DNA of 64,000 nt, from the IMG/VR virus record IMGVR_UViG_3300025909_000005. The stretch is one strand, 5' to 3'. Positions 5,901 to 61,540 of this stretch are shown here, one piece after another (position 1 is the stretch's first letter; each line of letters opens with the position of its first letter). Made by a program: the position numbers and the translations under genes. This DNA comes from a virus. Taxonomy: Duplodnaviria; Caudoviricetes. The notes beneath the pieces were generated by a model. It worked only from the letters and a program-made list of their open reading frames with translations, was not told the DNA's origin and did not search any database.

Positions 5901-6892
5901 AAGCCCGTCATAGAGCCGGCCAGCGTGTACGTCAGGGAGTCGGGATCAAGAACGGTGAGAGTGAACTCCTCAGCGTCAGAGCCACCACCCGTGATGTCTG
6001 TGACAGACGTGTAGGCGTCGGCAACGTCCTTGAAGACGAGCGCACCAGACTCGTAGATCTCCATGTCGCTGAAGTGGCGCAGGGCCAGCGAGGAGGTCAG
6101 CAGCTCAATCTTCTCCTGAACGCCATCACGTGCCTGCACGATGTCAGGGTTTGCAGAGGCGCCCATCCAGGCCAAGAGAGCTTCGTAGCTGGTTGGCAGG
6201 TCAGGAATTGCGATGATAGCGAACAAAGCATCGAGCTCTCGCTGTACGTCTGCATCACCGCCAACGTCAGTCACCACCGTTTGGATGTCGTTCAGGATCT
6301 TCGTGATCTGGCTGATCGCGCTCAGGGGGTTGGTCGTATCGAGCGCAGCGGCTCGTGCAATGTTCGTGGCCTCGGTGATGATGCCATCCTCGTTGGACGG
6401 GATCCACAGAGGATCAAATGGGCTTGACGAGTTGCCGGTGCCTGAGTACGTCTGCTTGATCTGAAACTGGAACGAGCCGTGGCTCTGGAAGAAGTCAACC
6501 GATTCCGTCTGCGGCTCGAGCAGACCAGCCTTCTTCACGAAGACCTGGTTCACGCCAATGGCGTCGAAGCTCTTCTTGGAGTAGACGTATGGGACCGTTG
6601 GCAGGTCGGTGTTCTCGTCCTGTCCCACCGTGAAGGTTCGAGTACGCATGAACGGCGACTGAACGCGGTGTGCAGGGAACGAACGATACAGCGGGTTCGC
6701 GCCAGAGAAGTAGTTGAAGGTCCAGGCAGGGCTGATCTTTGTCTTGATCAGCAGCTTCTCTGTGATCTTGACGTTGACGTCCTCAAAGAACTGGTACTCC
6801 TCAACGATCTCCGTCAACTTGGAGTGGTACGGCTTCGTGTCGTTGATGTAGTCAACAAGACTCTGGACGTAGAGGCTGTTCTTATTTGTCAT
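2921..6892 (-). CDS. Large virion structural protein, probable baseplate wedge/fibre-attachment (1323 aa)
   Basis: Long ORF with phage codon bias. N-terminus SLVDYINDTKPYHSKL, repeated beta modules (GDKFYF, GDVFSF, GDTFTF) and baseplate context. Confidence 0.6.
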   Translation of the reverse strand: MTNKNSLYVQSLVDYINDTKPYHSKLTEIVEEYQFFEDVNVKITEKLLIKTKISPAWTFNYFSGANPLYRSFPAHRVQSPFMRTRTFTVGQDENTDLPTVPYVYSKKSFDAIGVNQVFVKKAGLLEPQTESVDFFQSHGSFQFQIKQTYSGTGNSSSPFDPLWIPSNEDGIITEATNIARAAALDTTNPLSAISQITKILNDIQTVVTDVGGDADVQRELDALFAIIAIPDLPTSYEALLAWMGASANPDIVQARDGVQEKIELLTSSLALRHFSDMEIYESGALVFKDVADAYTSVTDITGGGSDAEEFTLTVLDPDSLTYTLAGSMTGFLAFVTPGTYTSPRVSFTLTSLATPPVGQKLALTPYNKITIGTSALREQWNIIKVNPIAHDRPFYGSSHYGHIQDSSGTVGNIDLLDQTLIGDFVMTATDSTHFSVVGPTYYSVAEVGVPFNDGKLGFTLVGPFQAGDKFYFSIANIPAEVQNLDLGYGYDLDAYDNDHLTYADGTTKINFAYDGRFTDYDLTQLNLTLTQAVQDGRYFRVRALPSTSLITTKKDGTSSDFVDLDDATSGVSPDPASNAAARYGAPELELYLSTTFSVDYSDDNFLTSHHIGNVNVGESFSSSTYGISFDLPAGSKPFIAVTAADTTYPRVEGGDVFSFQVVNPLPTLVERPVGLVAARLPRLIMHSDDFFKAPEAKWTVKFDTTTSYTVSNDKGFYSSGNTIPTPGLIAAEGLSYKNDYVHFTIVPNGGIFAGDTFTFNTFDKKPSYLVHGSVTGWTKPATIGEYYWNDKIGFKLNAPVGQLFDTTNSLRTDLPLTYTIREDCPSLIYTFTKTSSGYLVQRSDINVTGFMPATGTFNDKYLSATSTGLTEDVVHLRVIDHGYQLWNSADMVILNPALPPRLPDAGDLVVVEKSEDGRALISITTSTADTSPLDLINIDPRFISTSTNSDIPLSNTSPETAILNGWLPMTDGRYDSVTSIAEYSDPTTLHVFTTAASGETIGKLQQTDATNVNWPIEFEWDEAFFTKYLPLNAQVNLVTIDNSWNELTRVRIAESLRFLIDGGPLAEDHMFEDDANISVVDTTEWSINQTLVDSFNTTIVDGPFTGFLAGYDNLPYDNETTNGFYDLGQPLTAYFLEAQELMALPSPSPTDSARLADLRDLLGDFLVNGSLSQTTLPDFLAALDADTVLTAQNFGFPEQGSAFDIVDRPSTPVATSITDSMVLLSVDNGNTFGTAGYDTGGLDSQTESTSISFIQSAPTTIDVTLPARIFQVVFTVAPQSTPTFSVLLPVQTVPLQVGAQKLAGSYTYQFSFASPTTLQIIVA

Positions 6893-7226
6893 TCTTTGCT
6901 AGTTTCGCGAGCACGTCATTGTGCTTCTGGATGGCGCGCTCCACAACCTTCAGGTCGTCCTCAAGCTTCATGGCGCGAAGCGTGTTCTTGGTGGTGTCCT
7001 TCTTTGCAAGCAGGGCCAGCTCTGACTTGATGGCCTTCTGGCGGGTCAGCAGAGGAGCAAGCGCCTTGTTCTCGCGATTGGTTACCTTGGCCGCGTGCGT
7101 TGCACGGAACCGGACCTCATCGTCCTTCATGACCTTGTAGCTGTGGCCAAGAGCCGCAGCGCCGAGCACGGTTGCTGCGAGAGTGCTGGCAAACTTGCCT
7201 TCTTCCAGGAGTTCGTTAACTTTCAT
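6882..7226 (-). CDS. Small basic protein with capsid-targeting-like leader (MKVNELLEE), hydrophobic stretch and coiled coil (114 aa)
   Basis: Leader shared with many ORFs in the window. Inserted between two large structural genes. Confidence 0.6.
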   Translation of the reverse strand: MKVNELLEEGKFASTLAATVLGAAALGHSYKVMKDDEVRFRATHAAKVTNRENKALAPLLTRQKAIKSELALLAKKDTTKNTLRAMKLEDDLKVVERAIQKHNDVLAKLAKNDK

Positions 7227-7229
7227 GTC

Positions 7230-15835: not shown

Positions 15836-17059
15836 TCAGGACTTGACTGGCTCGAAGTTCGCAAGGAACTTCGCATCGCCGACCTCAAACTTGGCGCCCT
15901 TAGTTGTCGCCTTCTTATCGAAGTAGGTGAACGGCTCATCGAATGTAAAGCCAATCCAATAAGAGCTTAGCGAGGATGTTGGGTCGACGTACTTGATCGT
16001 CACGACCTTGCCAATGGCGTTCTCTTTTTCCGTCTTGAAGCCAAGCATGTCATCCACAGGATGGTGTAGGAACACGTCACCTGTGATCTTCCACTTCTGA
16101 CCTACCTTTGGCGCCTCGTCCTTTAGCTTCGAGAGAACGCCCTCAGTAACTGGCTTTGCCTGGCCTCTCATCCACTTTGCGCCATCTTCTTCAAGGTACT
16201 CACCAAGTTTCTCAAGGTTTTCCAGAGAGCCAGTGAACGTTACAAGAGGGTAGCCGTGTTTGTCCCTGCTCGTGTGGTCTACATGAGCTTCGAGATTGTA
16301 CTCACGGGCCAGGCGATTGACGGTCTTTTCGATTCTATCGTGGTCATATCGACCGTAATCTTCTGGTCGTTGATTCGTCTGGAAGTTGAATGGGCTGAAG
16401 TTTCTAGTTTCGAACTTCCACTTGACAACCTTGTCGTAATCCTTCTTAAGGTCCTTTAGACCTTCCTTCACCTTGTTGGCCCGCTTGGCGTGCTTCCTGA
16501 AGTAGCGCTTTGCTGCCTGGGAATCCTCATCATAGTAGACGTACTCAAGTACGTCGATCAGAGCATTGTAGGTTCCCATCAACGTGAAGACGTTGCCGTT
16601 TCGATGAATGGACCGAGCACCCCAGATCTTGAACTCCTCTTCGATGTCATTGAGGTCGTAGGACGTGAAGTCAATGTCCATGAGCCACAGGTCATCATCT
16701 GAGTCGAAGTCCTTGGCCAAGTCCTTGAGCGCTTCCTGCACCTTCTTTTTCTTGACGCGCTTTGCGCCAGACTTGAAGTTGTACTCAGCTTGCCAAGCGC
16801 GTTCACCATCATCCACTACGTGGAGGAGTACGTCCATCAACCGTTCCTTGGTTCCCTCAAGCTCGTACCTGTAGCCATTGTGAGACAGCACAACGACGCC
16901 GCGCTTCTCAATCGCCTTCACGAACTTATCTTCGTTGGCCTTGTGCTTCTCGTCGTCAGCCGTGCGATCGTCATTGATGACAGCGATTCGCCACTTGTCG
17001 GCGTCATCGTAGTCCTTGGCCATGTCCTTCAGACCTTCAAGAAGTTCGGCAACTTTCAT
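15836..17059 (-). CDS. Four-module putative internal head polyprotein (407 aa)
   Basis: Leader MKVAELLE-GLKDMAKDYD recurs internally as VQE-ALKDLAKDFD, VKE-GLKDLKKDYD and VTE-GVLSKLKDE. Confidence 0.65.
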   Translation of the reverse strand: MKVAELLEGLKDMAKDYDDADKWRIAVINDDRTADDEKHKANEDKFVKAIEKRGVVVLSHNGYRYELEGTKERLMDVLLHVVDDGERAWQAEYNFKSGAKRVKKKKVQEALKDLAKDFDSDDDLWLMDIDFTSYDLNDIEEEFKIWGARSIHRNGNVFTLMGTYNALIDVLEYVYYDEDSQAAKRYFRKHAKRANKVKEGLKDLKKDYDKVVKWKFETRNFSPFNFQTNQRPEDYGRYDHDRIEKTVNRLAREYNLEAHVDHTSRDKHGYPLVTFTGSLENLEKLGEYLEEDGAKWMRGQAKPVTEGVLSKLKDEAPKVGQKWKITGDVFLHHPVDDMLGFKTEKENAIGKVVTIKYVDPTSSLSSYWIGFTFDEPFTYFDKKATTKGAKFEVGDAKFLANFEPVKS

Positions 17060-17394
17060 TTGATCAGCTGCTTGTCTGAGGTTACAGGCTTGGCGAATTC
17101 GTCAAAGAACTCCTTGTCTTCACCCCAGTGACGTTCGACCATGTCTAGCAGACGATAGTCCTTACCAACGAAGTGAACAAGCGGATTGCCGCCGCCCGGC
17201 CCAACGAGCTCAATCACCTTGGCCTTCACGCCACAGTCATTTGCAATGATGTCAGCGTCATGCTGCGCTACGCTCATGCTCGAGTTGTCGCTGTTCGCCA
17301 GGTCAAGGTCGATGTACCAAAGATCTCCGTACTTCCTGGCTTCGCTCTCAAGATCCTTGAGCTTACCTTCGAGGAACTGCTTGAACGTGATCAT
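17056..17394 (-). CDS. Small acidic protein with T4-IP-like leader MITFKQFLE (112 aa)
   Basis: Leader resembles the T4 internal-protein capsid-targeting sequence. GPGGGNPLVHFVG motif is shared with the 52876 ORF. Confidence 0.65.
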   Translation of the reverse strand: MITFKQFLEGKLKDLESEARKYGDLWYIDLDLANSDNSSMSVAQHDADIIANDCGVKAKVIELVGPGGGNPLVHFVGKDYRLLDMVERHWGEDKEFFDEFAKPVTSDKQLIK

Positions 17395-21207: not shown

Positions 21208-21560
21208 GCAGTGGCGAACTCGAGGCGCAGGGTGTCCACGATTCCCAGTTCGATGTAGCGAAGGTCAAGAACAGCCACGATGGCGTTGTTCTCAGGAAGG
21301 GCCATGACAGCGATGTCAATAAGCTGAACGCGAGGGTCGTAGTCGACGACCTCCCGCAGGTCTGACTCAACGTCCTTTAGTGTGAGCTGGTCCAGAGGTT
21401 CAAAGGCGATCAGTGGGATGCGCGTGCCAAAGCCAGGCATCATGACGCGCTCGCCCTTGAGAGTGTAGATGTGGTTTAGGAGGTCTCGGTTGATGAGCTC
21501 TGCGCCCTTCATGCCGAAGCCTTTCTTCGCCTTGGTGGAGAAGCCGAGGTACTTACTCAT
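21204..21560 (-). CDS. gp25: Baseplate wedge subunit, T4 gp25-like (118 aa)
   Basis: Start reassigned to ATG 21560 (MSKYLGFST). LINRDLLNHIYTLKGERVMMPGFGTRIP...FEP...VVDYDPRV. Confidence 0.9.
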   Translation of the reverse strand: MSKYLGFSTKAKKGFGMKGAELINRDLLNHIYTLKGERVMMPGFGTRIPLIAFEPLDQLTLKDVESDLREVVDYDPRVQLIDIAVMALPENNAIVAVLDLRYIELGIVDTLRLEFATA

Positions 21561-21951
21561 CAAGTTCCCTAATATTGATGCGAACACGATTGGTGGACTC
21601 TGGTTTGCCTGTGTCGAAGTTGAAGGGGTTCCAAGAAGCAAACTCATGTAGGCCCAAGTTCGTTGACTTTGCCTCAATAGTCTTGCATAGCTTCGTCATG
21701 TTCCTGGCAACTTCCAGGTCATGTGCTCGATTTTGATCGTCATCCTCGATCGGGCCCGGCGAGGGGTCCCACTCAGGCACCTTCAGCGTCAAGTAGGAGT
21801 AACCGTCCTTATCGGGCTTTGTCAGCCCGAGGAACTTGTAACCAGGACCGAAGTTCAGTCTCTTAAGGAGGTCGTTGAAGATCGGAAGCTTCGTCTTCGG
21901 TATTGAAGCCTTGAGCTTTGCCAGGTCCTCAAGAAGTTCGGTGACTTTCAT
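21553..21951 (-). CDS. Small protein with capsid-targeting-like leader MKVTELLE (132 aa)
   Basis: Inserted between gp5 and gp25. Has the leader motif and a TAAATA at 22136-22141 upstream. Confidence 0.6.
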   Translation of the reverse strand: MKVTELLEDLAKLKASIPKTKLPIFNDLLKRLNFGPGYKFLGLTKPDKDGYSYLTLKVPEWDPSPGPIEDDDQNRAHDLEVARNMTKLCKTIEAKSTNLGLHEFASWNPFNFDTGKPESTNRVRINIRELDE

Positions 21952-36608: not shown

Positions 36609-37294
36609 TGATCCTAAGTGAAGTTGTCGACATTCACGATGTCAACTCCTCTGCTGAAAAGTGGGGCGACCTCATCGTCAAGAACTGCAAGCCGTTCCTT
36701 GCACTGGCTGGTGGCAAGCCGCTCTACCGTGGCATCCACCGCAGCAACATTGGTGGCCTGGCAACAATCACACCTCGCACTGATCGCAAGCCAATGGACA
36801 CAAAGCCCGAGGTTCAAAAGGGACTTGACAGGTACTTCGAGAAGAAGTATGGCGTCAAGCCCCGCACAGAAGGTCTGTTCACGACAGGTGACAGTCACAA
36901 CGCTGCCTCCTTCGGCCAGGTCTGCTACCTCTTCCCGCTTGGGGAGTTCAAGTACTTCTGGTTCTACGACAAGCGGTTCAAGGAAGTTCTTCGTGACACG
37001 GTCCGACTGACGCGCCACATTCGCCTTCGTGGTGATGCGCGCATCTACGACCGCGAGGACAGTGAGGAAGAACAGGAAGACCTGGCCGACTTCATTAGCC
37101 ACACGTTCAGCAAGGACGGCCCGTTTGAGATTCGTACAGACAACTTCAAGCAGGCACTGCAGTCTGGCGCGGAAATCATCGTTGTCTGCCGGCGCGCCTA
37201 TGCCGTTCCTCGCTACATTGGTGGCGACAATGGACAGGGCTTCTTTGAAGTTCACTACGACACGCTGATCCACCCTGAGGATTACCAAGAGTAA
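36608..37294 (+). CDS. ADP-ribosyltransferase-like protein (228 aa)
   Basis: LYRG, then LFTTGDSHNAASFG, in the order of ART strand-1 and strand-2 motifs. Short leader MILSE. Confidence 0.5.
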   Translation: MILSEVVDIHDVNSSAEKWGDLIVKNCKPFLALAGGKPLYRGIHRSNIGGLATITPRTDRKPMDTKPEVQKGLDRYFEKKYGVKPRTEGLFTTGDSHNAASFGQVCYLFPLGEFKYFWFYDKRFKEVLRDTVRLTRHIRLRGDARIYDREDSEEEQEDLADFISHTFSKDGPFEIRTDNFKQALQSGAEIIVVCRRAYAVPRYIGGDNGQGFFEVHYDTLIHPEDYQE

Positions 37295-37622: not shown

Positions 37623-38857
37623 TTTACAAGGTCTCCTCGACCAAGCAGCTGCACTTCTCTGATCCGCTCCATGTGGGGCGGTTCTACCCACATGCGCAGC
37701 GTGTGCACCAAGGGAAGATGCAGGAACGCCAAGACCTGATCCTCTACCTCGCGAGCATTCACGAGGCGGCGATCAAGTCTGGCATGCCTCGTGGTTTCTG
37801 TCGGATTCCGATGCGGCTCACGAGTCTGAAGGAATGGGTGCACGACTACAAGGGTGCGTTCAATCACTTCTTCACGATCGTCGAGTCAGGCTACCACATC
37901 GGCGATGATTGGCAGTACAGCGTCATCATCCCGAACGAGCTGCCACGGGATCCTGACTTCGAGCACACCGAGCGGAAACTCGTGTACGTTCCACCTCCAG
38001 TCCCCGCTCAGGGTGTCGTGTCGAAGGTGTTCGTGCAGGTGCAGAAGAAGGAGCCCATCCTCAAGAAGCTGGCCACGAACAACCGCCTGGACCTCTACGC
38101 TCCAGTCGAGTGGCTCCTGTCCCAGCCAACCAACGAGTTCAACTTCTACTTCATCCCATCTGGGAAGCTGCAGATGCGGGATACCTCGATCTGGCCAATC
38201 GCGGCCATCGAGACCTGGCCCTCGTGGCTGCGTGAGGATCTCTTTGGCCCTGGCATTGACATCGAGGCCGCGTACACCCAGTTCCTGATCGAGGGAGTTC
38301 GCAAGGCATACGAGAAGGAACCGGACATGGTTCGGATTCTCTACCCAGACCTGCTGCGTTCACTCGAGGACAAGACGCAGTGGCGCCGAGAGATCTGTGA
38401 AGATGTGCTCGGCATGGAGTGGAATGACCACAGCGTGGGCGTGGTGAAGAAGATCTGCATGAGCCTGGCCAACGGTTCAAAGATCTCACCTGGGATCCTG
38501 CTCTCGGAGATGGGTCACTCAATGACTCGCAACATTATCCTCGAAGAGTCGGCAGACGTGACTGCAAGCAAACTGATCCACATCGGTCAACGGCTCCTCA
38601 CCATTTCACGACAGTACTCCGCAGCAAAGAAGGTGGTGTGCAGGTGGGAGCTCGGCTTGGCACCAACCAGGGCCAACCAGAAGAAGGTCTTCGCTGGCTA
38701 CTTCGAGTGGGAACGTGAGGCGCGCTACAAGATCTGGGAAAGTGTTGGGAGACACGGGATCATGGTGCACGATGGGATCGACGGCATTCCTGAAGAGGAG
38801 CTCAGCCGAATCCCTGAGATCATTTCGAGCTTGAACTTGAAGCTGACCCGCTCTTAG
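37619..38857 (+). CDS. Compact family-A/T7-RNAP-superfamily polymerase-like protein (412 aa)
   Basis: SGKLQ...WLREDLF...GIDIEAAYTQFL (motif A), VVKKICMSLANG (motif B) and IMVHDGID (motif C), in the canonical order. Confidence 0.55.
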   Translation: MIYKVSSTKQLHFSDPLHVGRFYPHAQRVHQGKMQERQDLILYLASIHEAAIKSGMPRGFCRIPMRLTSLKEWVHDYKGAFNHFFTIVESGYHIGDDWQYSVIIPNELPRDPDFEHTERKLVYVPPPVPAQGVVSKVFVQVQKKEPILKKLATNNRLDLYAPVEWLLSQPTNEFNFYFIPSGKLQMRDTSIWPIAAIETWPSWLREDLFGPGIDIEAAYTQFLIEGVRKAYEKEPDMVRILYPDLLRSLEDKTQWRREICEDVLGMEWNDHSVGVVKKICMSLANGSKISPGILLSEMGHSMTRNIILEESADVTASKLIHIGQRLLTISRQYSAAKKVVCRWELGLAPTRANQKKVFAGYFEWEREARYKIWESVGRHGIMVHDGIDGIPEEELSRIPEIISSLNLKLTRS

Positions 38858-39215
38858 ACGGGAAGATCATCACGAAGCGGTACCGGTCGGAGTGCGTGAA
38901 CTTCTGACCGGTTACCTTCACGTCTGAGTTCTGCTTCTTGATGAGATCGAGGTACTGCTTCATGCGCACGTCGGCGATCGGCGGGCTCTTTGGCGTGATT
39001 AGAGTTACCACAGCCTCGTAGTGAAACTTGTCAGGGCTACGAGGATCCTCAACCTTGACCCTCACATAGGACTGGAATGACAAACCCTTAATCTGCCTTG
39101 CGAGCATGCGAAGGGTGTACTCGGCCTTGTGCGGGTCTGACAGTGACGTGGTGACGTCATCGTAGTGGCCCTTAAGCTTGTCAAGGGCTTCGAGGAATTG
39201 GCGGAAGGTTTGCAT
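38820..39215 (-). CDS. Putative internal head protein, leader MQTFRQFLE-ALDKLKGHYD (131 aa)
   Basis: Leader motif. TAAATA 6 nt upstream of the ATG. 3' end overlaps the convergent gene. Confidence 0.65.
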   Translation of the reverse strand: MQTFRQFLEALDKLKGHYDDVTTSLSDPHKAEYTLRMLARQIKGLSFQSYVRVKVEDPRSPDKFHYEAVVTLITPKSPPIADVRMKQYLDLIKKQNSDVKVTGQKFTHSDRYRFVMIFPSKSGSASSSSSK

Positions 39216-43531: not shown

Positions 43532-45268
43532 TTGGCACAGCTCCAAAACTACTGGCGCATTATTACGCCAGCATCACGTAAGCAGTTGTATACGACACTG
43601 TCGGTAGACGCCTACGATCCGCGCACCACTGACAACTCGTCGATGACGTCCGTGCAGTGGTACTCACAGGTTCTTCGTGGTCTAGGTACTCGTCAAGCGA
43701 ACTACAAGCAGTACGATGCCATGGACATGGACATCGACATCAACCGCTCTCTCGACATCATCGCTGAGGAAATGTCTGGCAAGGACGAGAAGACCGGTTT
43801 GCCGTTCGAGATCGAGTACCAGAAGGAAGACAACCAAGACATCAGCGACACGACTGCTGTCACCCTTCGCCAGGCTGTCCGCCAGTGGTCGTCCACGCAG
43901 GACCTGAACAAGCGCATCTTCTCGATCGCCCGTCAGATGGTCAAGTACGGTGACTGCTTCTTCCGCAAGGTCTCTGACACTCAGAAGTGGGCGGCCGTTG
44001 ATCCATCTCTGGTGCACGGCATTGAGATCGACATGCTCGGCAACAAGATCGCCTATCACTTGAAGAAGCCAACGAACAACACGTTCTACGGTTCCAAGAA
44101 CGAGCAGATGGAAGTGGTGCCAGCCTCGGCCATGATTCACTTCACGCTGTCTGACGACATGGGCGACTCAGCACCGTTCGGTAACTCCGTGCTCCGCCCA
44201 ATTCACCGCGTCTACCGCCAGCTCTCCATGCTGGAAGACGCCGTCATCATCTACCGCATCGTTCGCGCACCTGAGCGTCGCCTGTTCTACATCGACGTCG
44301 GCAACATGCCACCTCAGCGCGTGAAGCAGTACCTCGAACAGATCAAGAACGAGATGCGACAGAAGCGGATCCCGGGTGTGAACGGTGGCAAGGACACCGT
44401 CGACGGTCAGCTTGACCCAATGTCCATTCAGGAAGACATGTTCTTCCCTGTCACCGCAGGTGGCCGTGGCTCACGCGTTGAGACCCTGCCTGGCGGCACT
44501 GAGGACTTCGGTACGAACCTGATCAAGCTGTTCCAAGACAAGATCTTCCGCGGTCTCCGCATCCCAACCTCGTACATGACTGGTACGGATGGTCAGGGTG
44601 CGCAGTACAACGACGGCAAGGTCGGTATTGCCTACATCGAGGAACTGCGCTTCGCTCAGTTCATTCGTCGTATGCAGGACCGCCTCGATGAGATCTTCGA
44701 CGAAGAGTTCAAGATCTACCTGAAGGTTCTCGGTCTGAAGGTCGATGATGAGATCTTCCGCATCAAGCTCCCAGATCCAGCCAATTTCGCCCTGTACCGT
44801 CAGGCCGCCCTTGACGCTGACCTGATTGGTTCGTTCAACAACATTGCCGCTGAGAAGACCTTGAGCCGCCGCTTCATCCTGAAGCGCTACCTCGGCCTGA
44901 CCGACGACGAGATCCAGATGAACGAAGTGATGCTCAAGGAAGAGCGTGGCATCCTCGAGAACGCCAACATCCCATCGATCCAGCAGATGTACGACCCAGC
45001 CGTCTACGACAACCGTGAAGCTCTCACGGTCGAGGCTGCGTCTCCTGATGCTCCTCAAGGTTCTGGCCCATCGGCCGGTGGAGATGAGGGCGGTGGTGGC
45101 GGTGGAGGAGGCGGGGAGACCGGCTTCTTCGATGAGACCGGTGGCGGTGGAGGTGAAGAAGGTGGTGGAGGTGGAGGTGGAGGTGAAGAAGCCGCTCCTG
45201 AAACTGGAGGCGCCCCAACTCCTGCACCTGCTCCGGCCCCAGCAACAGCACCTGGCCCATCGGCATGA
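43532..45268 (+). CDS. gp20: Portal protein, T4 gp20-like, with Gly/Glu/Pro-rich C-terminal tail (578 aa, TTG start)
   Basis: LSMLEDAVIIYRIVRAPERRLFYIDVGNMPPQRVKQYLEQIKN, EDMFFP...GRGSRVETLPGG and ELRFAQFIRRMQ. Confidence 0.95.
   Translation: MAQLQNYWRIITPASRKQLYTTLSVDAYDPRTTDNSSMTSVQWYSQVLRGLGTRQANYKQYDAMDMDIDINRSLDIIAEEMSGKDEKTGLPFEIEYQKEDNQDISDTTAVTLRQAVRQWSSTQDLNKRIFSIARQMVKYGDCFFRKVSDTQKWAAVDPSLVHGIEIDMLGNKIAYHLKKPTNNTFYGSKNEQMEVVPASAMIHFTLSDDMGDSAPFGNSVLRPIHRVYRQLSMLEDAVIIYRIVRAPERRLFYIDVGNMPPQRVKQYLEQIKNEMRQKRIPGVNGGKDTVDGQLDPMSIQEDMFFPVTAGGRGSRVETLPGGTEDFGTNLIKLFQDKIFRGLRIPTSYMTGTDGQGAQYNDGKVGIAYIEELRFAQFIRRMQDRLDEIFDEEFKIYLKVLGLKVDDEIFRIKLPDPANFALYRQAALDADLIGSFNNIAAEKTLSRRFILKRYLGLTDDEIQMNEVMLKEERGILENANIPSIQQMYDPAVYDNREALTVEAASPDAPQGSGPSAGGDEGGGGGGGGGETGFFDETGGGGGEEGGGGGGGGEEAAPETGGAPTPAPAPAPATAPGPSA
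45063..45264 (+). repeat. Low-complexity GGT/GGA/GGC and Pro-Ala repeats encoding the portal C-terminal tail
   Basis: GGGGGGGG runs, EE pairs and APAPAPAP. Confidence 0.8.
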
Positions 45269-45702
45269 CCCTTCTTCTTGAAGTAACCTCAGGTTTCACC
45301 TACAAGATGGTGCGTGGGCCTGAGCTCTACGAGAAGCTCTGGCACCTGCCGGAGAATGAGGAGCTGCACAAGCGGATCAAGTACCTGTCAAGTGGTTACA
45401 GCGACTACAAGGAAGAGATTGACTGGCTCTGTCTTGAGGGTAGGAAGATTGTCGGCGTAGCCGGATTCAAGAACAACCCGTACGACAAGAACGACATGTG
45501 GATCACCTTCATCTCAGTCGATCCTGACTATCGGGAGAAGGGAATTGGCCAAGAGCTCGCCCGAAAGGTCATTCAGTTCGCAGCCAAGCACAAGCTCTCT
45601 GTCACACCATCTAGCTACACGGCCATGGGCCAGAAGTCTCTCAAGAAAATCATCGATTCTGAGGCTGAAAAGCTCGGTGTAACAGTGAACAAAGAAGGCT
45701 GA
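45265..45702 (+). CDS. GNAT-family acetyltransferase (145 aa)
   Basis: ITFISVDPDYREKGIGQELARKV is the acetyl-CoA binding motif A. Leader MTLLLE. Confidence 0.85.
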   Translation: MTLLLEVTSGFTYKMVRGPELYEKLWHLPENEELHKRIKYLSSGYSDYKEEIDWLCLEGRKIVGVAGFKNNPYDKNDMWITFISVDPDYREKGIGQELARKVIQFAAKHKLSVTPSSYTAMGQKSLKKIIDSEAEKLGVTVNKEG

Positions 45703-45738: not shown

Positions 45739-46359
45739 ATGAAGTCCATCCTCCTCGTTGAAGACCTGACCCCAGTTCAGACCGCTCTTCGCGAACAACG
45801 TACCGCCTCTGGCGAGCTCTTCCTGAACGGCATCATGATGCAGTCTGAGCTCAAGAACGGCAACGGCCGTGTCTACCCATTGGCTGAGATCTCCCGTGCG
45901 GTGGACGAAGCTGCAAAGCGAATCGCCGAAGGCAACCCGATCATGGGCGAGCTGAACCACCCTGACGTTCTCTCGATCAACCTGGACCGCGTCTCGCACA
46001 TCATCACCGAGGTCCGCATGGACGGCAACAACGCCATCGGCAAGATGAAGCTCCTGAACACCCCAACTGGCCAGATCGCCCGCGGTCTGATCGAAGGTGG
46101 TGCACGTCTAGGTGTCTCTTCCCGTGGTACCGGCAACGTGAACGAATCTGGCGCGGTCTCTGACTTTGCCTTCGTAACTGTCGACATCGTTTCCCAGCCA
46201 TCGGCACCTGACGCCTACCCGAACGTGGTTCGTGAGGCCATGGAGAACAAGAAGATCCTGAGCCTGGCAGAAGCCGTCGTTCACGATCCGAAGGCACAGG
46301 CCTACTTCAAGAAGGAAATGTCCCTGTTCCTCGAGGCCATCACCAAGGGTAAGAAGTGA
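45739..46359 (+). CDS. gp21: Prohead protease, T4 gp21-like (206 aa)
   Basis: GIMMQSELKNGNGRVYP, GELNHP...INLDRVSHII, LGVSSRGTG and TVDIVSQPSAPDAY. Confidence 0.95.
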   Translation: MKSILLVEDLTPVQTALREQRTASGELFLNGIMMQSELKNGNGRVYPLAEISRAVDEAAKRIAEGNPIMGELNHPDVLSINLDRVSHIITEVRMDGNNAIGKMKLLNTPTGQIARGLIEGGARLGVSSRGTGNVNESGAVSDFAFVTVDIVSQPSAPDAYPNVVREAMENKKILSLAEAVVHDPKAQAYFKKEMSLFLEAITKGKK

Positions 46360-46562
46360 ACCTCCAAGAAGCACGCAAGTTGGCTGGTCTCCAGGAAGCC
46401 AAGAACATGAAGAACCCAAAGGTCGATGCAATGGTCGAGAAGCTCATGGGTTCCTGGAAGAAGATGTCCGAGCCAGAGTGCCAGACAGAGGTTGCCAAGC
46501 AGCTTCGTGCGGCCTACTCTGAAGGCTACAAGGACGGCTACAACGATTCCCCGAAGAAATGA
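46356..46562 (+). CDS. Small prohead core/internal protein with tandem LQE-A sites (68 aa)
   Basis: MNLQE-ARKLAGLQE-AK. Lies in the head operon. Confidence 0.6.
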   Translation: MNLQEARKLAGLQEAKNMKNPKVDAMVEKLMGSWKKMSEPECQTEVAKQLRAAYSEGYKDGYNDSPKK

Positions 46563-46888
46563 AGCTGCGTGAGCTGCACGAGAGCGCCCTCTCCAACATG
46601 AAGGCAGCTCACGCCGATCTCGTCGAGGCCGCGGAGAAGATCAAGAAGTGGATGCTTCAGTCCATGGAGAAGAAGGACTGGGATCTTGAGGGCATCAAGG
46701 ACAAGGAAGTCCATGTCTACCATGATGTCGATTACGGTTTCCTTATAGGACACGTCACTTGGCGCGGTAAGGACGATCCTGAACACATTGAACATTCCTA
46801 CACGGCAGTTTTCAACCTTGACGGCACCCTCTCAGCTGACACCAGCCACGGCTATGATCCGCCTCACGGGCTTGAAAAAGTCATATGA
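46559..46888 (+). CDS. Putative internal head protein, leader MKLRELHE (109 aa)
   Basis: Leader motif; lies in the head operon. Confidence 0.6.
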   Translation: MKLRELHESALSNMKAAHADLVEAAEKIKKWMLQSMEKKDWDLEGIKDKEVHVYHDVDYGFLIGHVTWRGKDDPEHIEHSYTAVFNLDGTLSADTSHGYDPPHGLEKVI

Positions 46889-47691
46889 AATTTACCGATC
46901 TCCTTGAAGCTTCCGAACCGAAGCAGAAAGTTGGCACTTCTAACTTTGCCAAGATGTCACGTGAGCAGAAGAAGGAGTACAAGGCCATCTATTCCATGCC
47001 TGACGACACCAAGGAAGACGAGGAGGCTCACTACGCCGCGCTGGCTGCCTACGAGGAAAAGTGGCAGATCGGCAAACACGCTAAGCCGACACCTCCCAAG
47101 TTCAAGATCGGTGACTTTGTTGAAGCCAAGGGGGAGCTCGGTGTCATCACGGGCATTGACCACCAGCCGCCAGACGAGCACAACGACTACGAGCAACCTG
47201 AGATTGGCTATGACATCAAGTCGTTCGATGGTGACATTTACGCCGATGAGTCTGCCGTAAAGAAGGCAGCACGTCCAAAGCTTGATGTACATCGCTTCAA
47301 CGGCACTTCACGTGGTGCACTGGACATTCTTCAGCGCGCCATCACTAGTGGTCTATCCTACCATCTTGGCGGAACCCCAAAGAAGAAAAGCAAAGGCACT
47401 TCTGCTCTGTCACGAATGCTTGACGACTACCACCACCTGCTAGGCAACTGGACTTTCCAGGTTGACAGGGATCCCGAACATAGCCATGCCTGGCTTATCA
47501 CTGTCGCAAACACCAAAACAAAGAAGTATTTCGTTGGAATCTTCTACACGAAGGACCACCCAGACTTTGATGAAGACGAGTTTGTGGACGGCTTTGGCTC
47601 CAGTGAGAAGCAAATTTTTAAGGCGCTCGAGCATGCAGGCAGCCGTGACATTGCCCGTGAGCTCTGGGAGTGCGGCTACACTCCGGAATGA
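46885..47691 (+). CDS. Putative internal head protein with SH3/KOW-like module, leader MKFTDLLE (268 aa)
   Basis: Leader motif. KFKIGDFVEAKGELGVITGI segment. Confidence 0.6.
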   Translation: MKFTDLLEASEPKQKVGTSNFAKMSREQKKEYKAIYSMPDDTKEDEEAHYAALAAYEEKWQIGKHAKPTPPKFKIGDFVEAKGELGVITGIDHQPPDEHNDYEQPEIGYDIKSFDGDIYADESAVKKAARPKLDVHRFNGTSRGALDILQRAITSGLSYHLGGTPKKKSKGTSALSRMLDDYHHLLGNWTFQVDRDPEHSHAWLITVANTKTKKYFVGIFYTKDHPDFDEDEFVDGFGSSEKQIFKALEHAGSRDIARELWECGYTPE

Positions 47692-48101: not shown

Positions 48102-49007
48102 ATGGACGAAATTCTGAACAAACTGCTTCAGTCCGAGCTTCTCAGCGAAGAAACAAAGGCTGAAATCTCCGAGCAATGGACCGCATCGGTCGAAGCCTTC
48201 AAGACCCAGGTCCGTGAAGAAGTTTCGGGTGAAGTGCGTGCAGAGCTCGCCAGCCAGTGGATTACCGAACGCGACGAGCTCATCAGCAAGGTTGATGAAT
48301 TCGTGGCCGAGGCGCTGACCAACGAAATCGAAGAACTCAAGGGTGACATCGAACGCTTCCGCGATCTGGAAGCCGAGTACGCTCTCAAGCTCGTCGAAGA
48401 AAAGCACAAGATGGCCGGCGAAGTCGCCCAGGAGCTTGACGCTCTTGTCGACAAGATCGACCAGTTCTTTGAGATGCGTCTCGCAGCCGAGATGGAAGAG
48501 CTCAAGGAAGACATCGAAGTAGTCAAGCAGAATGACTTCGGTCGCAAGATCTTTGAAGCATACGCTCAGACCTACGCAACCAACTATGTTGACGACGACT
48601 CGGTTCAGTCCAAGCTCGTTGTTGCTGAATCGAAGCTTGAAGAAGCCGAAGCTCAGCTTGCAGCTCTCGAAGAAGAGCGCAACAAGATGATTCGCGAAGC
48701 GAAGATGGAACAAGTTCTGTCGCCGCTGACTGGCAAGAAGCGCGAACAAATGGCCATGGTCCTCAAGAATGTGGACACTGGTCGTCTGGAAGAATCCTAC
48801 AAGTTCTTCATCAGCCGCATCCTCAAGGAAGACGACTCGTCGGCACCAGCCGCCAAGCCGCTGACCGAGGCTGCTAAGCCGGTTCAAACCACCGTTGCAA
48901 CGGGCGATAAGCCAGTTGCTCCAGCGCCTACTGACAGCGCTCCAACCGCTCTTCAAGAGCACCTGGCTCGCGTCCGCAGCCTCGCAGGTCTCACCAAGAC
49001 TGCCTAA
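48102..49007 (+). CDS. gp22: Prohead scaffolding protein, T4 gp22-like (301 aa)
   Basis: Glu-rich coiled coil, FGRKIFEAY motif, strong SD GGAG, directly before the MCP. Confidence 0.88.
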   Translation: MDEILNKLLQSELLSEETKAEISEQWTASVEAFKTQVREEVSGEVRAELASQWITERDELISKVDEFVAEALTNEIEELKGDIERFRDLEAEYALKLVEEKHKMAGEVAQELDALVDKIDQFFEMRLAAEMEELKEDIEVVKQNDFGRKIFEAYAQTYATNYVDDDSVQSKLVVAESKLEEAEAQLAALEEERNKMIREAKMEQVLSPLTGKKREQMAMVLKNVDTGRLEESYKFFISRILKEDDSSAPAAKPLTEAAKPVQTTVATGDKPVAPAPTDSAPTALQEHLARVRSLAGLTKTA

Positions 49008-49024: not shown

Positions 49025-50293
49025 ATGACACTTATCGAAAACTGGTCTGAGACCAAAGAGGCCCTGCTCGAAGGACTCTCCGGCTCGAAGCGCACCATCG
49101 TCGCGACTCTGATGGAAAATCAGAAGAAGATCTTCGAAACGGCACCGGCTAACGCTGTCGTTTCTGCGGACGTAGCAACGTTCCAGAAGATCATGATTCC
49201 GATGATCCGCCGTATCATCCCTGGCACGATCGGCGGCGAGCTCGTCGGCGTTCAGCCAATGACCGGCCCAACGGGTCTGATCTACACGCTGCGTTTCGCA
49301 TTCGCAGAACCAGTTGATGCCCCAGGCACGCTGCACGACATCACGCCAGGTGACGAAGCTTTCGTCTACAACGGCAAGATGAAGCGCTTCTACTCGGCTG
49401 CCAATGTCGGCACCGCTGGCTACCCACCAAGCCTCACGGCCAACACGTCTGACGGTTTCGCCGCCAAGACTGAGGACTACGAAGGTTACGGCGGTCGTCA
49501 GATGCGCCTCTCCGTTCTGAAGCAAGCTGTCAACGTTGGCACCCGCAAGCTGCAAGCTCGCTGGACCATGGAAGCTGCGCAGGACATGAACGCACAGCAC
49601 GGCATCGACATCGAAAGCGAACTGACTGCAGCTCTCGCCGCTGAAATCGCCCACGAAATCGACAACGAAATCCTGACCGACCTGCTCGCTCTGGCTTCGA
49701 CGACGGCTACGTACGACTTCGCAAACCCAGCTCCAGGCTTCTCGCCGAACTACATCGGCGACCGTTACGCTGAACTCGGTATCCTGATCAACCAGATGGC
49801 CAACGAAATTGGTGCACGCACCAAGCGCGGTCCTGGTAACTGGATCGTCGGCGGTCACCTGATCACCTCCATCCTCCAATCCGGTTCGCGCTCGGTCTTC
49901 GCACCAGCAATCTCCGGTACGTTCGATGCTCCAACCGGCAACCGCCTGGTTGGTACCCTCAACGGTGGTATCAAGGTCTACACCTACAACTGGGGTCTGA
50001 ACGACAACTACGACTGGATGTCCGGTGGCGTGAACACTGCATCCGGCTCGACCGGTGAAGACGTTCTGATCGGTTACAAGGGCGGCAACTCGGAGCTCGA
50101 CTCCGGTTACTTCTACTGCCCATACGTGCCGCTCATGAGCACCGGCCAGGTCATGGACGCCAACACGTTCATGCCAGCAGTTTCGCTCTCGACTCGTTAC
50201 GGCAAGGCAACGTTCACGAACGCTGCAACGTCGTTCGGTAACTCCGCTGATTACTACGCTCGCGTACTGGTCCGCAACGTCGCTTTCTCGTAA
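49025..50293 (+). CDS. gp23: Major capsid protein, T4 gp23-like (422 aa)
   Basis: IPMIRRIIP...GVQPMTGPTGLIYTLR, TRKLQARWTMEAAQDMNAQHGIDIESEL, EIDNEIL and FYCPYVPL...TRYG. Confidence 0.97.
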   Translation: MTLIENWSETKEALLEGLSGSKRTIVATLMENQKKIFETAPANAVVSADVATFQKIMIPMIRRIIPGTIGGELVGVQPMTGPTGLIYTLRFAFAEPVDAPGTLHDITPGDEAFVYNGKMKRFYSAANVGTAGYPPSLTANTSDGFAAKTEDYEGYGGRQMRLSVLKQAVNVGTRKLQARWTMEAAQDMNAQHGIDIESELTAALAAEIAHEIDNEILTDLLALASTTATYDFANPAPGFSPNYIGDRYAELGILINQMANEIGARTKRGPGNWIVGGHLITSILQSGSRSVFAPAISGTFDAPTGNRLVGTLNGGIKVYTYNWGLNDNYDWMSGGVNTASGSTGEDVLIGYKGGNSELDSGYFYCPYVPLMSTGQVMDANTFMPAVSLSTRYGKATFTNAATSFGNSADYYARVLVRNVAFS

Positions 50294-52875: not shown

Positions 52876-53484
52876 GTGGAAAAACTATTCGAACGCCGCT
52901 TCACGAAGAAGAAAATCTCAGACGGCCACTGGGTCGTTGCTGATCCAGAAGGTGGTGAACTGCGTGGCTTCGGTGTCTTCACTGATGAAGACAAGATCGA
53001 TGACAAGCTCGACCAACTGAACGGCACGAGCAAGTCTCGCAAGAACGGTGGTCAAGGCGCGCAAGCAGGTATCGGCCTCGGCACAGGTGCTGGTCGCAGC
53101 GAGCGGGGAGATCGTCGAATGGCGACAACCGAGAGCGAACAGCAGACCTTCCCAATGCTGAAGGAACTGGGGCTTTTTGAGGACGTTGCTCCTGCAAAGG
53201 AGCAGATTTGGCAGTCAGAAATGCCGTTCGCTTTTGACGACAGCCGTTCTTCAAGCAGTCCGGCAGCTGAAGCTGCCAAGTTCGCAAAGCGCTTCAAGGT
53301 TCATCACAAGATGACGGTCGCAAATGGCCCTTCAGGTGGCTGGCCAGAGTTCCTTTTCTGGGGCCCACGCTCGAACATGGAAAAGCTGCTCAAGGTTTAC
53401 AACAAGGGCGCTGGTCTTTCCAAGGAAGAAGAACACCAAGGATTGGTGAAATCGAAGCGCAAGTACGACCCGAGCGCGTTCTAA
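52876..53484 (+). CDS. Late-expressed putative internal head polyprotein inside the early region (202 aa, GTG start)
   Basis: Own TAAATA, SD AGGAGG and terminator. Leader MEKLFE and internal LGLFE-D. GPSGGWPEFLFWG is shared with the 17394 ORF. Confidence 0.65.
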   Translation: MEKLFERRFTKKKISDGHWVVADPEGGELRGFGVFTDEDKIDDKLDQLNGTSKSRKNGGQGAQAGIGLGTGAGRSERGDRRMATTESEQQTFPMLKELGLFEDVAPAKEQIWQSEMPFAFDDSRSSSSPAAEAAKFAKRFKVHHKMTVANGPSGGWPEFLFWGPRSNMEKLLKVYNKGAGLSKEEEHQGLVKSKRKYDPSAF

Positions 53485-56443: not shown

Positions 56444-56472
56444 GTGTACATCCTGCACCGACGTGCTATAAT
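56444..56472 (+). promoter_or_regulatory. Early promoter GTGTAC-N17-TATAAT (extended TG)
   Basis: Intergenic; same motif. Confidence 0.8.
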
Positions 56473-59528: not shown

Positions 59529-59552
59529 CCTGACTAGCAATCAGGTATCTTC

Positions 59553-60413
59553 ATGCGCACAATCAAGATCATCTCGGTCAACCCAAACGTTGGTGGCACA
59601 CCAGGCTCCATCGTCGTTGCCGGTGACTTCACGGCCATCTTCAATGGCAAGTTCTATCGGGATCCGACAACTGGAGCCACTCTTCCAGCCTACACGGTCA
59701 ACCCAGGCTCCAACTACGACCTGATCGATGCGACGCAGTTCGACGTCTCAGACAACGCGAAGTACTCAGGCCGCTACACCGTCTACACACCAACTGGCTC
59801 AGGCGACCTGCCACCAAGCAGCCTGGGTGGTGGCAACACGACCATCTACGTCAACGAGGTCGTTCCTCCTCTGGTTTCTGGTGATGCACCAAGCGTCGCG
59901 TCAGATGGCAACGTCGACAACATCTCGACGTACCTGCTCCAGGCTGGCGGCACGACAATCATCGTGCCGCCTGGCGTCGACCTCACGACGTATCCGCTCG
60001 AGTTCCAAGGCCGCAACTCCATCGGTTGGGGTGAGGTGTTCGCGCAGAACTTCCTGAACCTGGCCAGCAACTTCTCAAGCCCTACTCCTCCAGCCAACCC
60101 ATTTGTCGGTCAGATCTACTACGATACCGACGACAGTCAAGTGCGCGTCTGGAACGGCACGAGCTGGGGGCTGCTGAACCAGGCTTCTTTCGGCACGACG
60201 GCTCGCTTCACGCAGTCAACTCCTGCTACCACCTGGACAGTCAACCACGGGCTGAACCTCCAGTCACCGTACATCGCCTTCGTTCAGTTCTTCGTTGATC
60301 GTGGAGCCGGCCCGAAGCTGATCATTCCCTCTGACGTCTCCTTCGTTTCTGCTAACCAGTTGACGGTCACGTTCTCCAACCCAGAGCAGGGCTACGTCCT
60401 GGTTCGTCCATGA
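59553..60413 (+). CDS. Late virion structural (tail/fibre-associated) protein (286 aa)
   Basis: Late promoter upstream. WGEVFAQNFLNLASNFSSPTPPANPFVGQIYYDT...VWNGTSW and TWTVNHGL. Confidence 0.7.
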   Translation: MRTIKIISVNPNVGGTPGSIVVAGDFTAIFNGKFYRDPTTGATLPAYTVNPGSNYDLIDATQFDVSDNAKYSGRYTVYTPTGSGDLPPSSLGGGNTTIYVNEVVPPLVSGDAPSVASDGNVDNISTYLLQAGGTTIIVPPGVDLTTYPLEFQGRNSIGWGEVFAQNFLNLASNFSSPTPPANPFVGQIYYDTDDSQVRVWNGTSWGLLNQASFGTTARFTQSTPATTWTVNHGLNLQSPYIAFVQFFVDRGAGPKLIIPSDVSFVSANQLTVTFSNPEQGYVLVRP

Positions 60414-61540
60414 AGATCAATGAGCTCTTCGATCAGGAGGACCATGATGGCGACTCGACGTCTTCGAGCTTCGGCTACCATGTGACCAAAAAGATTGGTG
60501 ATCGCCTTCTTCAGTTTGAGGCTGCTCGCAGTGGTGAAACATGGGAGGTTTCATTTGGTCAGAAGATGCCGAATGGCGCGTTGAAGTACCAGCTCACCAA
60601 GACTGGTGATGAAATTCAAGTCTTCAGCTTCATCGTCTCTGCAATGCGGAGCTTCGTGAAGAAGTACCAGCCAAAGCGCATTCAGTTCAGCGTACGCAAG
60701 ATTGAGGGCTCACGCGCCTCGCTCTACCGCAAGCTCGTTGACCGCTTCCTGAAGGACTCTTACTGGAAGCAGGAGTACGAGATCGGTCTGGGATCTGCGG
60801 AAAAGTACGTACAGTTTGACCTCATCAAGAAGCCGACATCAGAGAGCCTTGATGAAGCGTTCGACAAGGCGACGAAGTACAAGGTAGTGACCCACAACAA
60901 CCACGAGTTCTGCGCCGAGTTTGAGTCTAATGGCAGGACCATTCGCGTCGACATCGAAGAGATGGGCGGCAACTTTGGCTGGGACATTGGCTTCATCGAG
61001 AAGTCAGGTAAGAACGGTGGTATGGGGGACTGGGCCGCGACTGGCAGCGGCGGTGAGTTGGAGGTCTTCGCGACTGTTAAGGCCATTGTGCATCAGTTCC
61101 TCCAGGAGTACAAGCCAAAGAAGATCGGCTTCGCGTCAGATCGAAGCGAGCTTAGCCGTGGTAAGCTCTACGATCGGTTCGTGAAACGTGGCATGTTTCC
61201 TGGCTATCGCCTGATCAAGAGGACTGATGACCCACGACAGATCTACGACAAGTGGGTTTTGGTTCGTGATGATTTGGATGAAGGCATGATGAAGCGGTCA
61301 AACCCCTTCGTCAGCGGAGAGCTTGAGCTGCCGAAGACGAGGGAGCGAAGCGTCGCTCCTACACCGGTCTCAACGAACGTTCGCGTTGAGAAGATGCTGA
61401 AGAATCTGGCTCAGCGTGCCAATGTCGACGTCTCTGTCGTTCGCAAGGCGCGTGACGAGATCATGAAGGACGTCGACTCGAAGCACCCAAACCGCTGGAA
61501 CATCATCATGTCCCGGCTGAACCGTCGCCTCGGCCTGTAA
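60410..61540 (+). CDS. Three-module putative internal head polyprotein (376 aa)
   Basis: Leader MKINELFD; internal SLDE-AFDK and DLDE-GMMK. Two tandem copies of one domain. Confidence 0.65.
   Translation: MKINELFDQEDHDGDSTSSSFGYHVTKKIGDRLLQFEAARSGETWEVSFGQKMPNGALKYQLTKTGDEIQVFSFIVSAMRSFVKKYQPKRIQFSVRKIEGSRASLYRKLVDRFLKDSYWKQEYEIGLGSAEKYVQFDLIKKPTSESLDEAFDKATKYKVVTHNNHEFCAEFESNGRTIRVDIEEMGGNFGWDIGFIEKSGKNGGMGDWAATGSGGELEVFATVKAIVHQFLQEYKPKKIGFASDRSELSRGKLYDRFVKRGMFPGYRLIKRTDDPRQIYDKWVLVRDDLDEGMMKRSNPFVSGELELPKTRERSVAPTPVSTNVRVEKMLKNLAQRANVDVSVVRKARDEIMKDVDSKHPNRWNIIMSRLNRRLGL

Follow-up and report, generated by a model that had tools for sequence, protein, structure and literature searches.

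Why should more than a dozen otherwise dissimilar late genes of one phage open with the same few residues? The question is raised by a 64,000-nucleotide stretch of DNA (here called the window) from the IMG/VR virus record IMGVR_UViG_3300025909_000005, which belongs to a giant soil phage related to T4. A first-pass annotation of the window had proposed that ~18 small genes share a short leader, ending in hydrophobic-x-Glu, that directs their products into the prohead and is removed there by the prohead protease. Every N-terminus that it quoted is present at the position given. We found that 14 genes carry the leader robustly and that prohead targeting with protease processing is its best explanation, to which we assign a probability of roughly 70%. 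Beside its DNA, the phage probably carries a protein cargo of unusual size and variability.

Approximately 81 genes were called in the window with a codon model (GC content 56%), and 14 of them have a strong leader, four of type A and ten of type B (Table 1). Type A follows the pattern T[FY][KRQ][QE]F[LI].?E. Its four matches each lie at residue 3-4 of a gene (starts 17394 and 39215 on the minus strand, 35207 and 35815 on the plus strand), and the six-frame translation of the window holds no further occurrence. A degenerate DNA version of the pattern gave three matches, compared to 0.00 in 100 shuffles. Type B has the form MK-Φ-x-(E/D/Q)-L-(L/H/F)-(E/D), the strict pattern fitting nine of the ten genes and a slightly looser form the tenth, 36207 (MKLGQLHE). 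The strict pattern was found at residue 3 in nine genes against 0.03 expected (binomial P ~1e-20), and seven times at ~20,500 internal positions, so that enrichment at the exact N-terminal register is ~300-fold. None of the 363 genes of phiKZ, our negative control, has either leader. Each leader open reading frame (ORF) scores best among the six frames in the codon model, and in all 14 the maximal ORF has no possible start codon before the Met of the leader; GTG is the start codon at 35815 and also at 52876, a weaker candidate. The proposed leader is thus confirmed for 14 mostly unrelated late genes.

The shorter forms in the original list of ~18 fared differently. Of the other window genes, 24% have a bare hydrophobic-x-E that ends within residues 4-12, as do 18% of phiKZ genes, and at this chance-level rate we rejected MILSE, MTLLLE, MNLQE and MEKLFE as leaders by motif alone. 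Since the short forms occur at background rate, the firm count is 14. The same bare motif at residues 4-12 is commoner N-terminally than internally in T4-related genomes (24-26% versus 16-18%) and equally common at both places in phiKZ (18% and 18%). These rates were taken from the gene sets of T4, phiKZ, Ralstonia phage RsoM2USA and a 336-kb IMG/VR genome (G001), and composition effects may contribute to them. Degenerate leaders may be far more numerous than the strict patterns count.

Both leader types have counterparts among the head proteins of T4. In the T4 genome (NC_000866), the internal proteins (IPs) IPII and IPIII start MKTYQEFIAE and IPI starts MKTFKEFTS...ITE, gp24 starts MAKINELLRE, Alt M(M)ELITELFDE, and the protease gp21 MNEPQLLIE. 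Aligned with these, type A is the IP form and type B the gp24/Alt form of one general pattern: hydrophobic, x, acidic/polar, hydrophobic, hydrophobic, (x), Glu. In T4 IPIII, the initial 10 residues are enough for encapsidation; residues 4 and 7 of the tag serve targeting and residues 8 and 10 processing, and gp21 cuts after L/I-x-E (PMC9026906). The leaders in the window are 8-11 residues long and, aligned by eye, have an aromatic/hydrophobic residue, F/L, L/I and E at the equivalents of T4 positions 4, 7, 8 and 10. Ten of the 14 end in L-x-E, including 60410, which is counted there via its D-Q-E alternative and also reads L-F-D; in three type A leaders the end is F-L-E, which places Phe at P3, and 32173 ends in L-L-D. 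Type B leaders hold another, earlier hydrophobic-x-E at residues 3-5. On this resemblance, the leaders are likely to be local versions of the T4 capsid-targeting/propeptide signal.

The window also encodes a gp21-type protease. The S77 peptidase matches PF03420 (E 3.1e-26), its H74 and S127 align with the catalytic H85 and S140 of T4, and its N-terminus MKSILLVE/D aligns with MNEPQLLIE/T of gp21 (slashes mark predicted cuts here and below). Downstream, the major capsid protein has a short propeptide that probably ends at KIFE/TAP near residue 38, as judged from the alignment with T4 gp23. The proposed likeness to T4 targeting and gp21-cleavage propeptides was thus upheld when compared with NC_000866, as was the presence of the protease, with its catalytic His and Ser conserved.

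The leaders are kept as amino acids: synonymous codons vary freely and the upstream DNA is unrelated. On these two grounds we rejected a recently duplicated DNA cassette as their origin. As read from the sequence, each of the 14 genes belongs to a unit that begins with a TAAATA late-promoter-like motif. The window holds 22 such sites, 17 of which sit 5-67 nt upstream of a gene start. The suggestion that leader genes often have a promoter of their own holds for only four of the 14; the other ten lie downstream in the same late units, mostly with a start codon that overlaps the preceding stop codon. Most leader genes have no clear Shine-Dalgarno sequence. TAAATA ends 5-6 nt before the ATG at the genes 32173 (plus strand), 39215 and 39576 (both minus strand; spans 32162-32175, 39215-39227 and 39576-39587), and if the start of transcription is placed as in the late promoters of T4, these three late mRNAs would have little or no untranslated leader.

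From 50.4 kb on, the window holds a block of small genes behind three identical early-type promoters. It had been claimed that leaders occur in this region (50.4-64 kb) only under late promoters, and we confirmed that 60410 is the only gene with a strong leader there and that 52876 and 60410 both belong to late-promoter units. Gene 60410-61540 is predicted to be co-transcribed with 59553-60413, which has a TAAATA 24 nt upstream, in an otherwise early region. In total, the tagged genes are spread over eight sites, among them the baseplate/fibre module on the minus strand (1-27.9 kb of the window). They sit as variable fillers between conserved structural genes, as the first-pass annotation had described.

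Table 1 Leader genes, weaker candidates, head genes and promoter motifs of the window. Positions are those of the window; a slash marks the predicted cut; aa, amino acids.
Position	Strand	Feature	Leader	Length (aa)	Remarks
6882..7226	-	Leader gene, type B	MKVNELLEE/G	114	
15836..17059	-	Leader gene, type B	MKVAELLE/G	407	Four tandem repeats of ~95 aa each
17056..17394	-	Leader gene, type A	MITFKQFLE/GKLKDL	112	
21553..21951	-	Leader gene, type B	MKVTELLE/D	132	
32173..32952	+	Leader gene, type B with Asp	MKITELLD	259	TAAATA 5 nt before ATG
32959..33438	+	Leader gene, type B	MKLSEIKLFEE/P	159	Acidic; own TAAATA 25 nt upstream
33435..33764	+	Leader gene, type B	MKISELLE/S	109	Basic, helix-turn-helix-like
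35207..35818	+	Leader gene, type A	MSQTFKEFLAE/AR	203	Basic; own TAAATA 29 nt upstream
35815..36210	+	Leader gene, type A	MITFKQFLE/ADLSKLAK	131	GTG start
36207..36608	+	Leader gene, type B variant	MKLGQLHE/A	133	Acidic
38820..39215	-	Leader gene, type A	MQTFRQFLE/A	131	Basic; TAAATA 6 nt before ATG
46559..46888	+	Leader gene, type B	MKLRELHE/S	109	Protease operon
46885..47691	+	Leader gene, type B	MKFTDLLE/A	268	Protease operon
60410..61540	+	Leader gene, type B	MKINELFDQE/D	376	Two DUF6934-like domains
36608..37294	+	phrog_11975 (large viral family)	MILSEVVD	228	Leader status uncertain
45265..45702	+	GNAT acetyltransferase	MTLLLE...		Leader status by motif no better than chance
46356..46562	+	Small conserved prohead-core-type protein	MNLQE/ARKLAGLQE/AK		Leader weak on its own
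52876..53484	+	Weak leader gene	MEKLFE		TAAATA 22 nt upstream; strong terminator 53490-53513
43532..45268	+	Portal protein (T4 gp20 family)			
45739..46359	+	Prohead protease, Peptidase_S77 (T4 gp21 family)			TAAATA 26 nt upstream
48102..49007	+	gp22-like scaffold, coiled coil			Hydrophobic-x-E density 7.3 per 100 aa, the window maximum
49025..50293	+	Major capsid protein, Pfam Gp23			
32162-32167; others start at 32928, 35172, 45707, 47706, 52848, 59523	+	TAAATA			
39227, 39587, 20967, 15804 (starts)	-	TAAATA			
50378-50405, 50709-50737, 56445-56472		Early-type promoters TGTACA-N16/17-TGnTATAAT			Identical

The predicted mature cargoes are acidic or basic proteins of 11-46 kDa. Pfam and PHROGs searches with all window cargoes returned only DUF6934, plus weak or unknown-function matches; 46885-47691 has no recognisable family in either and nothing usable in an Atlas search. 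The product of 6882-7226 has a basic mature part (isoelectric point 10) with a hydrophobic stretch at residues 12-29, and its gene, which has no homologue in G001 or RsoM2USA, is placed between tail/fibre-like genes of 2847 and 1323 aa. An Atlas model of 17056-17394 shows a globular alpha/beta domain from ~residue 22 (predicted TM-score, pTM, 0.72). Gene 21553-21951 is inserted between a gp5-like hub gene and a gp25-like wedge gene. Atypical codon use in 33435-33764, with a GC content at third codon positions of 0.41 versus ~0.7 for its neighbours, suggests recent acquisition; its family has ~27 small distant members whose N-termini vary, only some being leader-like.

We compared the 14 products by all-against-all BLASTP and observed similarity only between 32173 and 60410, which share the DUF6934-like domain. 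A hidden Markov model (HMM) of the repeat unit of 15836-17059 finds only the neighbouring gene 17056-17394, a paralogue with a single copy of the unit (hmmsearch E 0.005, window proteome). The cargoes are therefore mostly unrelated, as had been claimed, except for these two pairs, and one large paralogous family as their source was rejected apart from them.

Four of the 14 tagged genes have a homologue in G001 or RsoM2USA, compared to 28 of 36 untagged neighbouring late genes (Fisher P 0.002), and 32959-33438 is the only one with a syntenic homologue in G001. Between gp6 and the giant protein, the corresponding slot of G001 holds two different genes with similar leader-like starts. The idea of a swappable set agrees with the ten genes that lack a homologue in the two relatives and fails for the 35207 family, which is conserved in the clade: its 34 homologues keep TFKEHLxLxE/AR, with Glu11 and Arg13 invariant. 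The G001 orthologue of 35207 carries a type B leader, MKVSELLVE/DR, instead of type A, and this exchange between orthologues indicates that the two leader types are functionally interchangeable.

Cleavage-type motifs are also present inside two of the cargoes. Each of the four repeats of 15836-17059 is preceded by hydrophobic-x-E (LLE/G, VQE/A, VKE/G and VTE/G), and the joints continue (G/A)LKDLxKDYD, then ..W. The same (G/A)LKDL-type mature start follows the type A leaders of 17056 and 35815 and recurs inside 32173, where a DUF6934-similar N-module, a joint at residue 131 (ISE/GLGDLAK) and a C-module follow one another. Two variants are informative at these joints. In an 87%-identical variant of 15836-17059 from another sample (P0038), which has three repeats, MKVAELLE is fused exactly at the VQE/A joint. 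In a variant of 32173 (P0036), the N-module has diverged and the C-module is near-identical from the joint onward. These variant joints fit both cleavage and recombination there, and 15836-17059 is a candidate 'polycargo' that would be cut into four units. A broader model can be put forward tentatively, and we regard it as possible, though less likely than not. The protease site would be a genetic as well as a physical module joint; polycargoes such as the four-repeat 15836-17059 and the two-module 32173 would be cut in the prohead; recombination at hydrophobic-x-E/GL(K/G)DLAK joints would add, remove or swap modules; and a head-borne kit of at least two dozen pre-made proteins, which in relatives would include anti-defence enzymes such as Acb1 or ADP-ribosyltransferases, would act before phage transcription.

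Similar tags are found in related genomes. The DNA pattern for TFK[QE]F[LI] gave 11 hits in four related 336-360 kb genomes, all of them N-terminal, and the reversed pattern gave none. With the strict type A DNA pattern we found four hits in RsoM2USA and one to four in each of three complete IMG/VR relatives, on unrelated proteins. Whole-genome gene calls identify 16 tagged genes among the 475 of RsoM2USA and 15 among the 492 of G001; the strict patterns detect three tagged genes in T4 and none in phiKZ. When IMG/VR was scanned for ATG-x-TFK[QE]F[LI]-x-E, at least 120 contigs matched. Of 80 loci fetched, 69 also code for proteins related to those of T4 or this clade, which indicates that phages related to T4 generally have the type A tag. 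The window is remarkable for the density of tags, 14 in 64 kb. In one contig (IMGVR_UViG_3300025288_000189, 7000-9422), four M-x-TFK[QE]F[LI]-x-E genes lie in tandem within 2.4 kb, resembling an IP locus, and several further IMG/VR contigs hold two tagged genes each.

RsoM2USA also provides virion data. Its ten most abundant virion bands were excised and analysed using liquid chromatography coupled to tandem mass spectrometry, giving ORFs 38, 86, 89, 132, 257, 356, 359, 361, 383 and 438 (PMC8504454). We observed that ORF89 (28.56 kDa) starts MKTFKQFLSE and ORF132 (76.62 kDa) starts MKTFKQFLNT, and our computed masses match the published ones. Two tagged ORFs among ten bands correspond to a hypergeometric P of 0.004-0.008 (5-7 type A genes among 486 ORFs). 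Tagged proteins of the relatives further include a type-B-tagged ART-PolyVal (an ADP-ribosyltransferase) and Amidoligase_2 in G001 and, in RsoM2USA, Acb1, which counters the cyclic-oligonucleotide-based antiphage signalling system and whose Pfam domain begins only at residue 14. As these three act inside the host cell, they favour, by analogy, delivery over a purely structural role. Leader-like N-terminal extensions were observed on the Acb1 homologues of RsoM2USA (29535-30023, MKVTELLD...) and G001 (111546-111971, MLLNELKNVE...), and the T4 homologue 57B (73952-74410) starts MMEFKDFS... and adjoins ipI. These extensions raise the question of whether Acb1 may be packaged.

By analogy with T4, we infer the following course of events. 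The tagged proteins would be made late in infection, and their amphipathic N-terminal 8-11 residues would dock onto the prohead scaffold core before the shell closes. The S77 protease would then cut after the Glu of the hydrophobic-x-Glu at the end of the leader and, in at least two proteins, also internally at hydrophobic-x-Glu/Gly-Leu-(Lys/Gly)-Asp-Leu joints. The mature 11-46 kDa proteins freed in this way would remain in the head with the DNA. Like T4 IPI*, Alt and other internal proteins, at least some would leave with the DNA and act before phage expression; such a function as injected effectors is plausible. The cargo genes would be interchangeable fillers between the conserved structural genes.

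Targeting to the prohead core does not by itself imply injection. Most cargoes might instead be assembly or core parts or DNA-condensing fillers, similar to T4 IPII, IPIII, gp67 and gp68, that are either degraded and expelled or remain inside as inert proteins. Such a role would suit the three tagged or weakly tagged genes in the protease operon, which is the place of the T4 core proteins, and the leader-like starts that relatives have on genes adjoining the protease. It would also suit the 35207 family, conserved across the clade like a structural gene, and the several cargoes that are small, highly charged and without enzyme signatures. Assembly components, however, would not be expected to lack homologues in two related complete genomes, as ten of the 14 do, and the tagged ART-PolyVal, amidoligase and Acb1 of the relatives only make sense in a host cell. 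In addition, the same tag is carried by T4 IPI and Alt, both of which are injected and have host roles (PMC9026906, PMC3012670). We consider this explanation unlikely.

We also considered that the shared N-terminus is unrelated to the capsid: it might reflect translation initiation or the mRNA where genes lack a Shine-Dalgarno sequence, be a half-life tag read by host proteases, or form a helix that docks onto some other late assembly, for example the baseplate. Several leader genes indeed start 5-6 nt after TAAATA or overlap a stop codon, but untagged genes use the same kinds of start context, and conservation at the amino-acid level with free synonymous variation does not fit a feature of the mRNA. 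Four leader genes lie inside the baseplate/fibre module and the T4 early region contains a tagged gene, 61.1; against this, the leaders follow, residue for residue, the positions that experiments in T4 have assigned to targeting and processing (PMC9026906), phiKZ genes have no such tag, and two tagged RsoM2USA proteins are reported in virions. Overall, a non-capsid role is very improbable. A by-product of paralogy or chance is largely refuted, for although two pairs are related (15836/17056 and 32173/60410), MK starts are common and a bare hydrophobic-x-E is frequent near N-termini, neither BLASTP nor the repeat HMM links the other genes, the enrichment at the exact register is ~300-fold, and the same leaders occur on unrelated proteins elsewhere, with 76 of 77 fetched IMG/VR occurrences opening ORFs of at least 50 aa.

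Several observations weigh against prohead targeting, processing and delivery as the explanation. Three leaders of the MITFKQFLE type carry Phe rather than Leu/Ile at P3, and those of 32173 and 60410 end in Asp; in T4, Asp at tag position 10 blocks cutting and keeps targeting (PMC9026906). The window's own cargoes gave no assigned function, anti-defence functions included, in Pfam or PHROGs, and some, at 42-46 kDa, are large for passage through the portal without unfolding or cleavage. An AlphaFold2 model of the 35207 family (19-sequence alignment) is of low confidence (pTM 0.29) and shows only a short helix at residues 5-11. The virion evidence comes from the relative RsoM2USA and not from this phage, and its authors call the band assignments 'most likely' and report nothing on N-terminal cleavage (PMC8504454). 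In XacN1, type A leaders are absent and neither the chitinase nor the lipase of the virion is tagged, so we rejected this phage as supporting proteomics. Finally, T4 gene 61.1 (NC_000866, 18966-19130), a 54-aa hypothetical gene of the early region, starts with the near-perfect capsid-targeting sequence (CTS) MKTFKEFIKE, yet its product is not known from the head; possession of the tag is thus not in itself proof of packaging. A complex prediction for the scaffold with the first 45 residues of 17056-17394 scored 0.00 without controls and counts neither way.

The comparison with T4 also defines what is new. Here, as in the T4 internal proteins, a tag of ~10 residues with a hydrophobic-x-Glu end (T4 MKTYQEFIAE and MKTFKEF...; here MxTFKQFL(x)E) lies on late genes whose products share only the tag, next to a gp21-family protease. 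In contrast to the three IPs at one or two loci of T4, we count at least 14 tagged genes in 64 kb at eight sites that include the baseplate module, and several leaders lack the spacer residue (FLE, not L-x-E). The first-pass contrast with three IPs was nevertheless too narrow, because the tagged set of T4 consists of IPI-III, Alt and gp24, plus the similar alt.-1 and 61.1; per window or genome, the excess over T4 comes to about 2-3 fold rather than an order of magnitude. The type B leaders MKVNELLEE and MKINELFDQE can be nearly superimposed on the gp24 and Alt propeptides, MAKINELLRE and MELITELFDE. Alt is a packaged, injected ADP-ribosyltransferase, and G001 has its type-B-tagged ART-PolyVal. 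T4 uses this form on one vertex protein and one enzyme, whereas here it is found on ten mostly orphan proteins, and no gp24 homologue or ADP-ribosyltransferase was identified among the tagged genes of the window.

Polyvalent proteins of phages and conjugative elements, described by Iyer and colleagues in 2017, are proposed to be delivered with the DNA against host defences. The same domain types, ART-PolyVal and amidoligase, are found in the relatives studied here, but as separate small tagged genes and not as one giant fusion; the 407-aa repeat protein would be a small-scale fusion with predicted joints. The hypervariable IP loci of T-even phages hold diverse, fast-exchanged cargo that keeps only its targeting sequence, a turnover interpreted as arms-race evolution against the defences of the host (Repoila et al. 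1994, as cited in PMC3012670). The present case differs in its jumbo lineage, its dispersed slots, its leader classes that appear interchangeable on orthologues, and its mosaic joints at internal cleavage-type motifs. In phiKZ, 201phi2-1 and SPN3US, many head-internal proteins are likewise cut after Glu by a gp21-related protease and many are ejected, but the propeptides are long (often >100 residues) with the motif S/A-x-E (PMC9026906), compared to 8-11 residues and L/F-x-E here. The kind of system is thus known from the T4 CTS and internal proteins; its scale, dispersal, interchangeable leaders, cleavage-type joints and candidate polycargo are new.

If the tagged proteins are packaged, a short signature would allow the head-borne cargo of uncultured jumbo phages to be read straight from their genomes. 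From it one could list candidates for first-strike proteins of host takeover or anti-defence, most of them without known fold or function, and the targeting rule of T4 would extend to a distant lineage whose head is much larger. That rule has already been used to load foreign proteins into T4 heads. The joints suggest that protease sites serve in cargo shuffling, and RsoM2USA, which is cultured and has the same tags, makes the idea directly testable.

Four genes with weaker N-termini deserve separate mention. Relatives hold a small '..RKLAGLP..E' protein at the same place as 46356-46562. The acetyltransferase gene 45265-45702 is inserted between portal and protease, the place of the gp67/gp68 core proteins in T4, and is not found at this site in G001. 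For 36608-37294, an ADP-ribosyltransferase-like fold was a weak lead, found only in Atlas rows at a TM-score of 0.34 and left unconfirmed; a single-sequence AlphaFold2 model was unusable (predicted local distance difference test, pLDDT, 32). Gene 52876-53484, with its TAAATA and terminator, reads as a self-contained late unit inside the early region.

The window has no closely similar phage record; identical fragments of it are present in two JGI (Joint Genome Institute) metagenomes, and it is syntenic with 154-213 kb of G001. The nearest isolate by capsid protein is RsoM2USA (51%), next come XacN1 and Xoo-sp13 and then Rak2-like jumbo phages, and the lineage is that of the XacN1/RsoM2USA group of jumbo phages, at ~377 kb. 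Genes similar to gp47 and gp46 are also encoded. The late gene 7230-15773 encodes a single 2847-aa protein with 47% identity to a 2684-aa protein of G001, and RsoM2USA has the 2541-aa structural protein ORF361 at the equivalent place. In the early region, a TATAAT-like hexamer ends ~6 nt before the ATG of genes 50744 and 61580, so some early mRNAs may be leaderless as well. Three further early-region genes, 55803-56096, 56093-56443 and 56896-57594, open with lipoprotein-type signal peptides and lipobox-like LAGC, ISAC and LAAC, and are possible envelope or superinfection-exclusion proteins.

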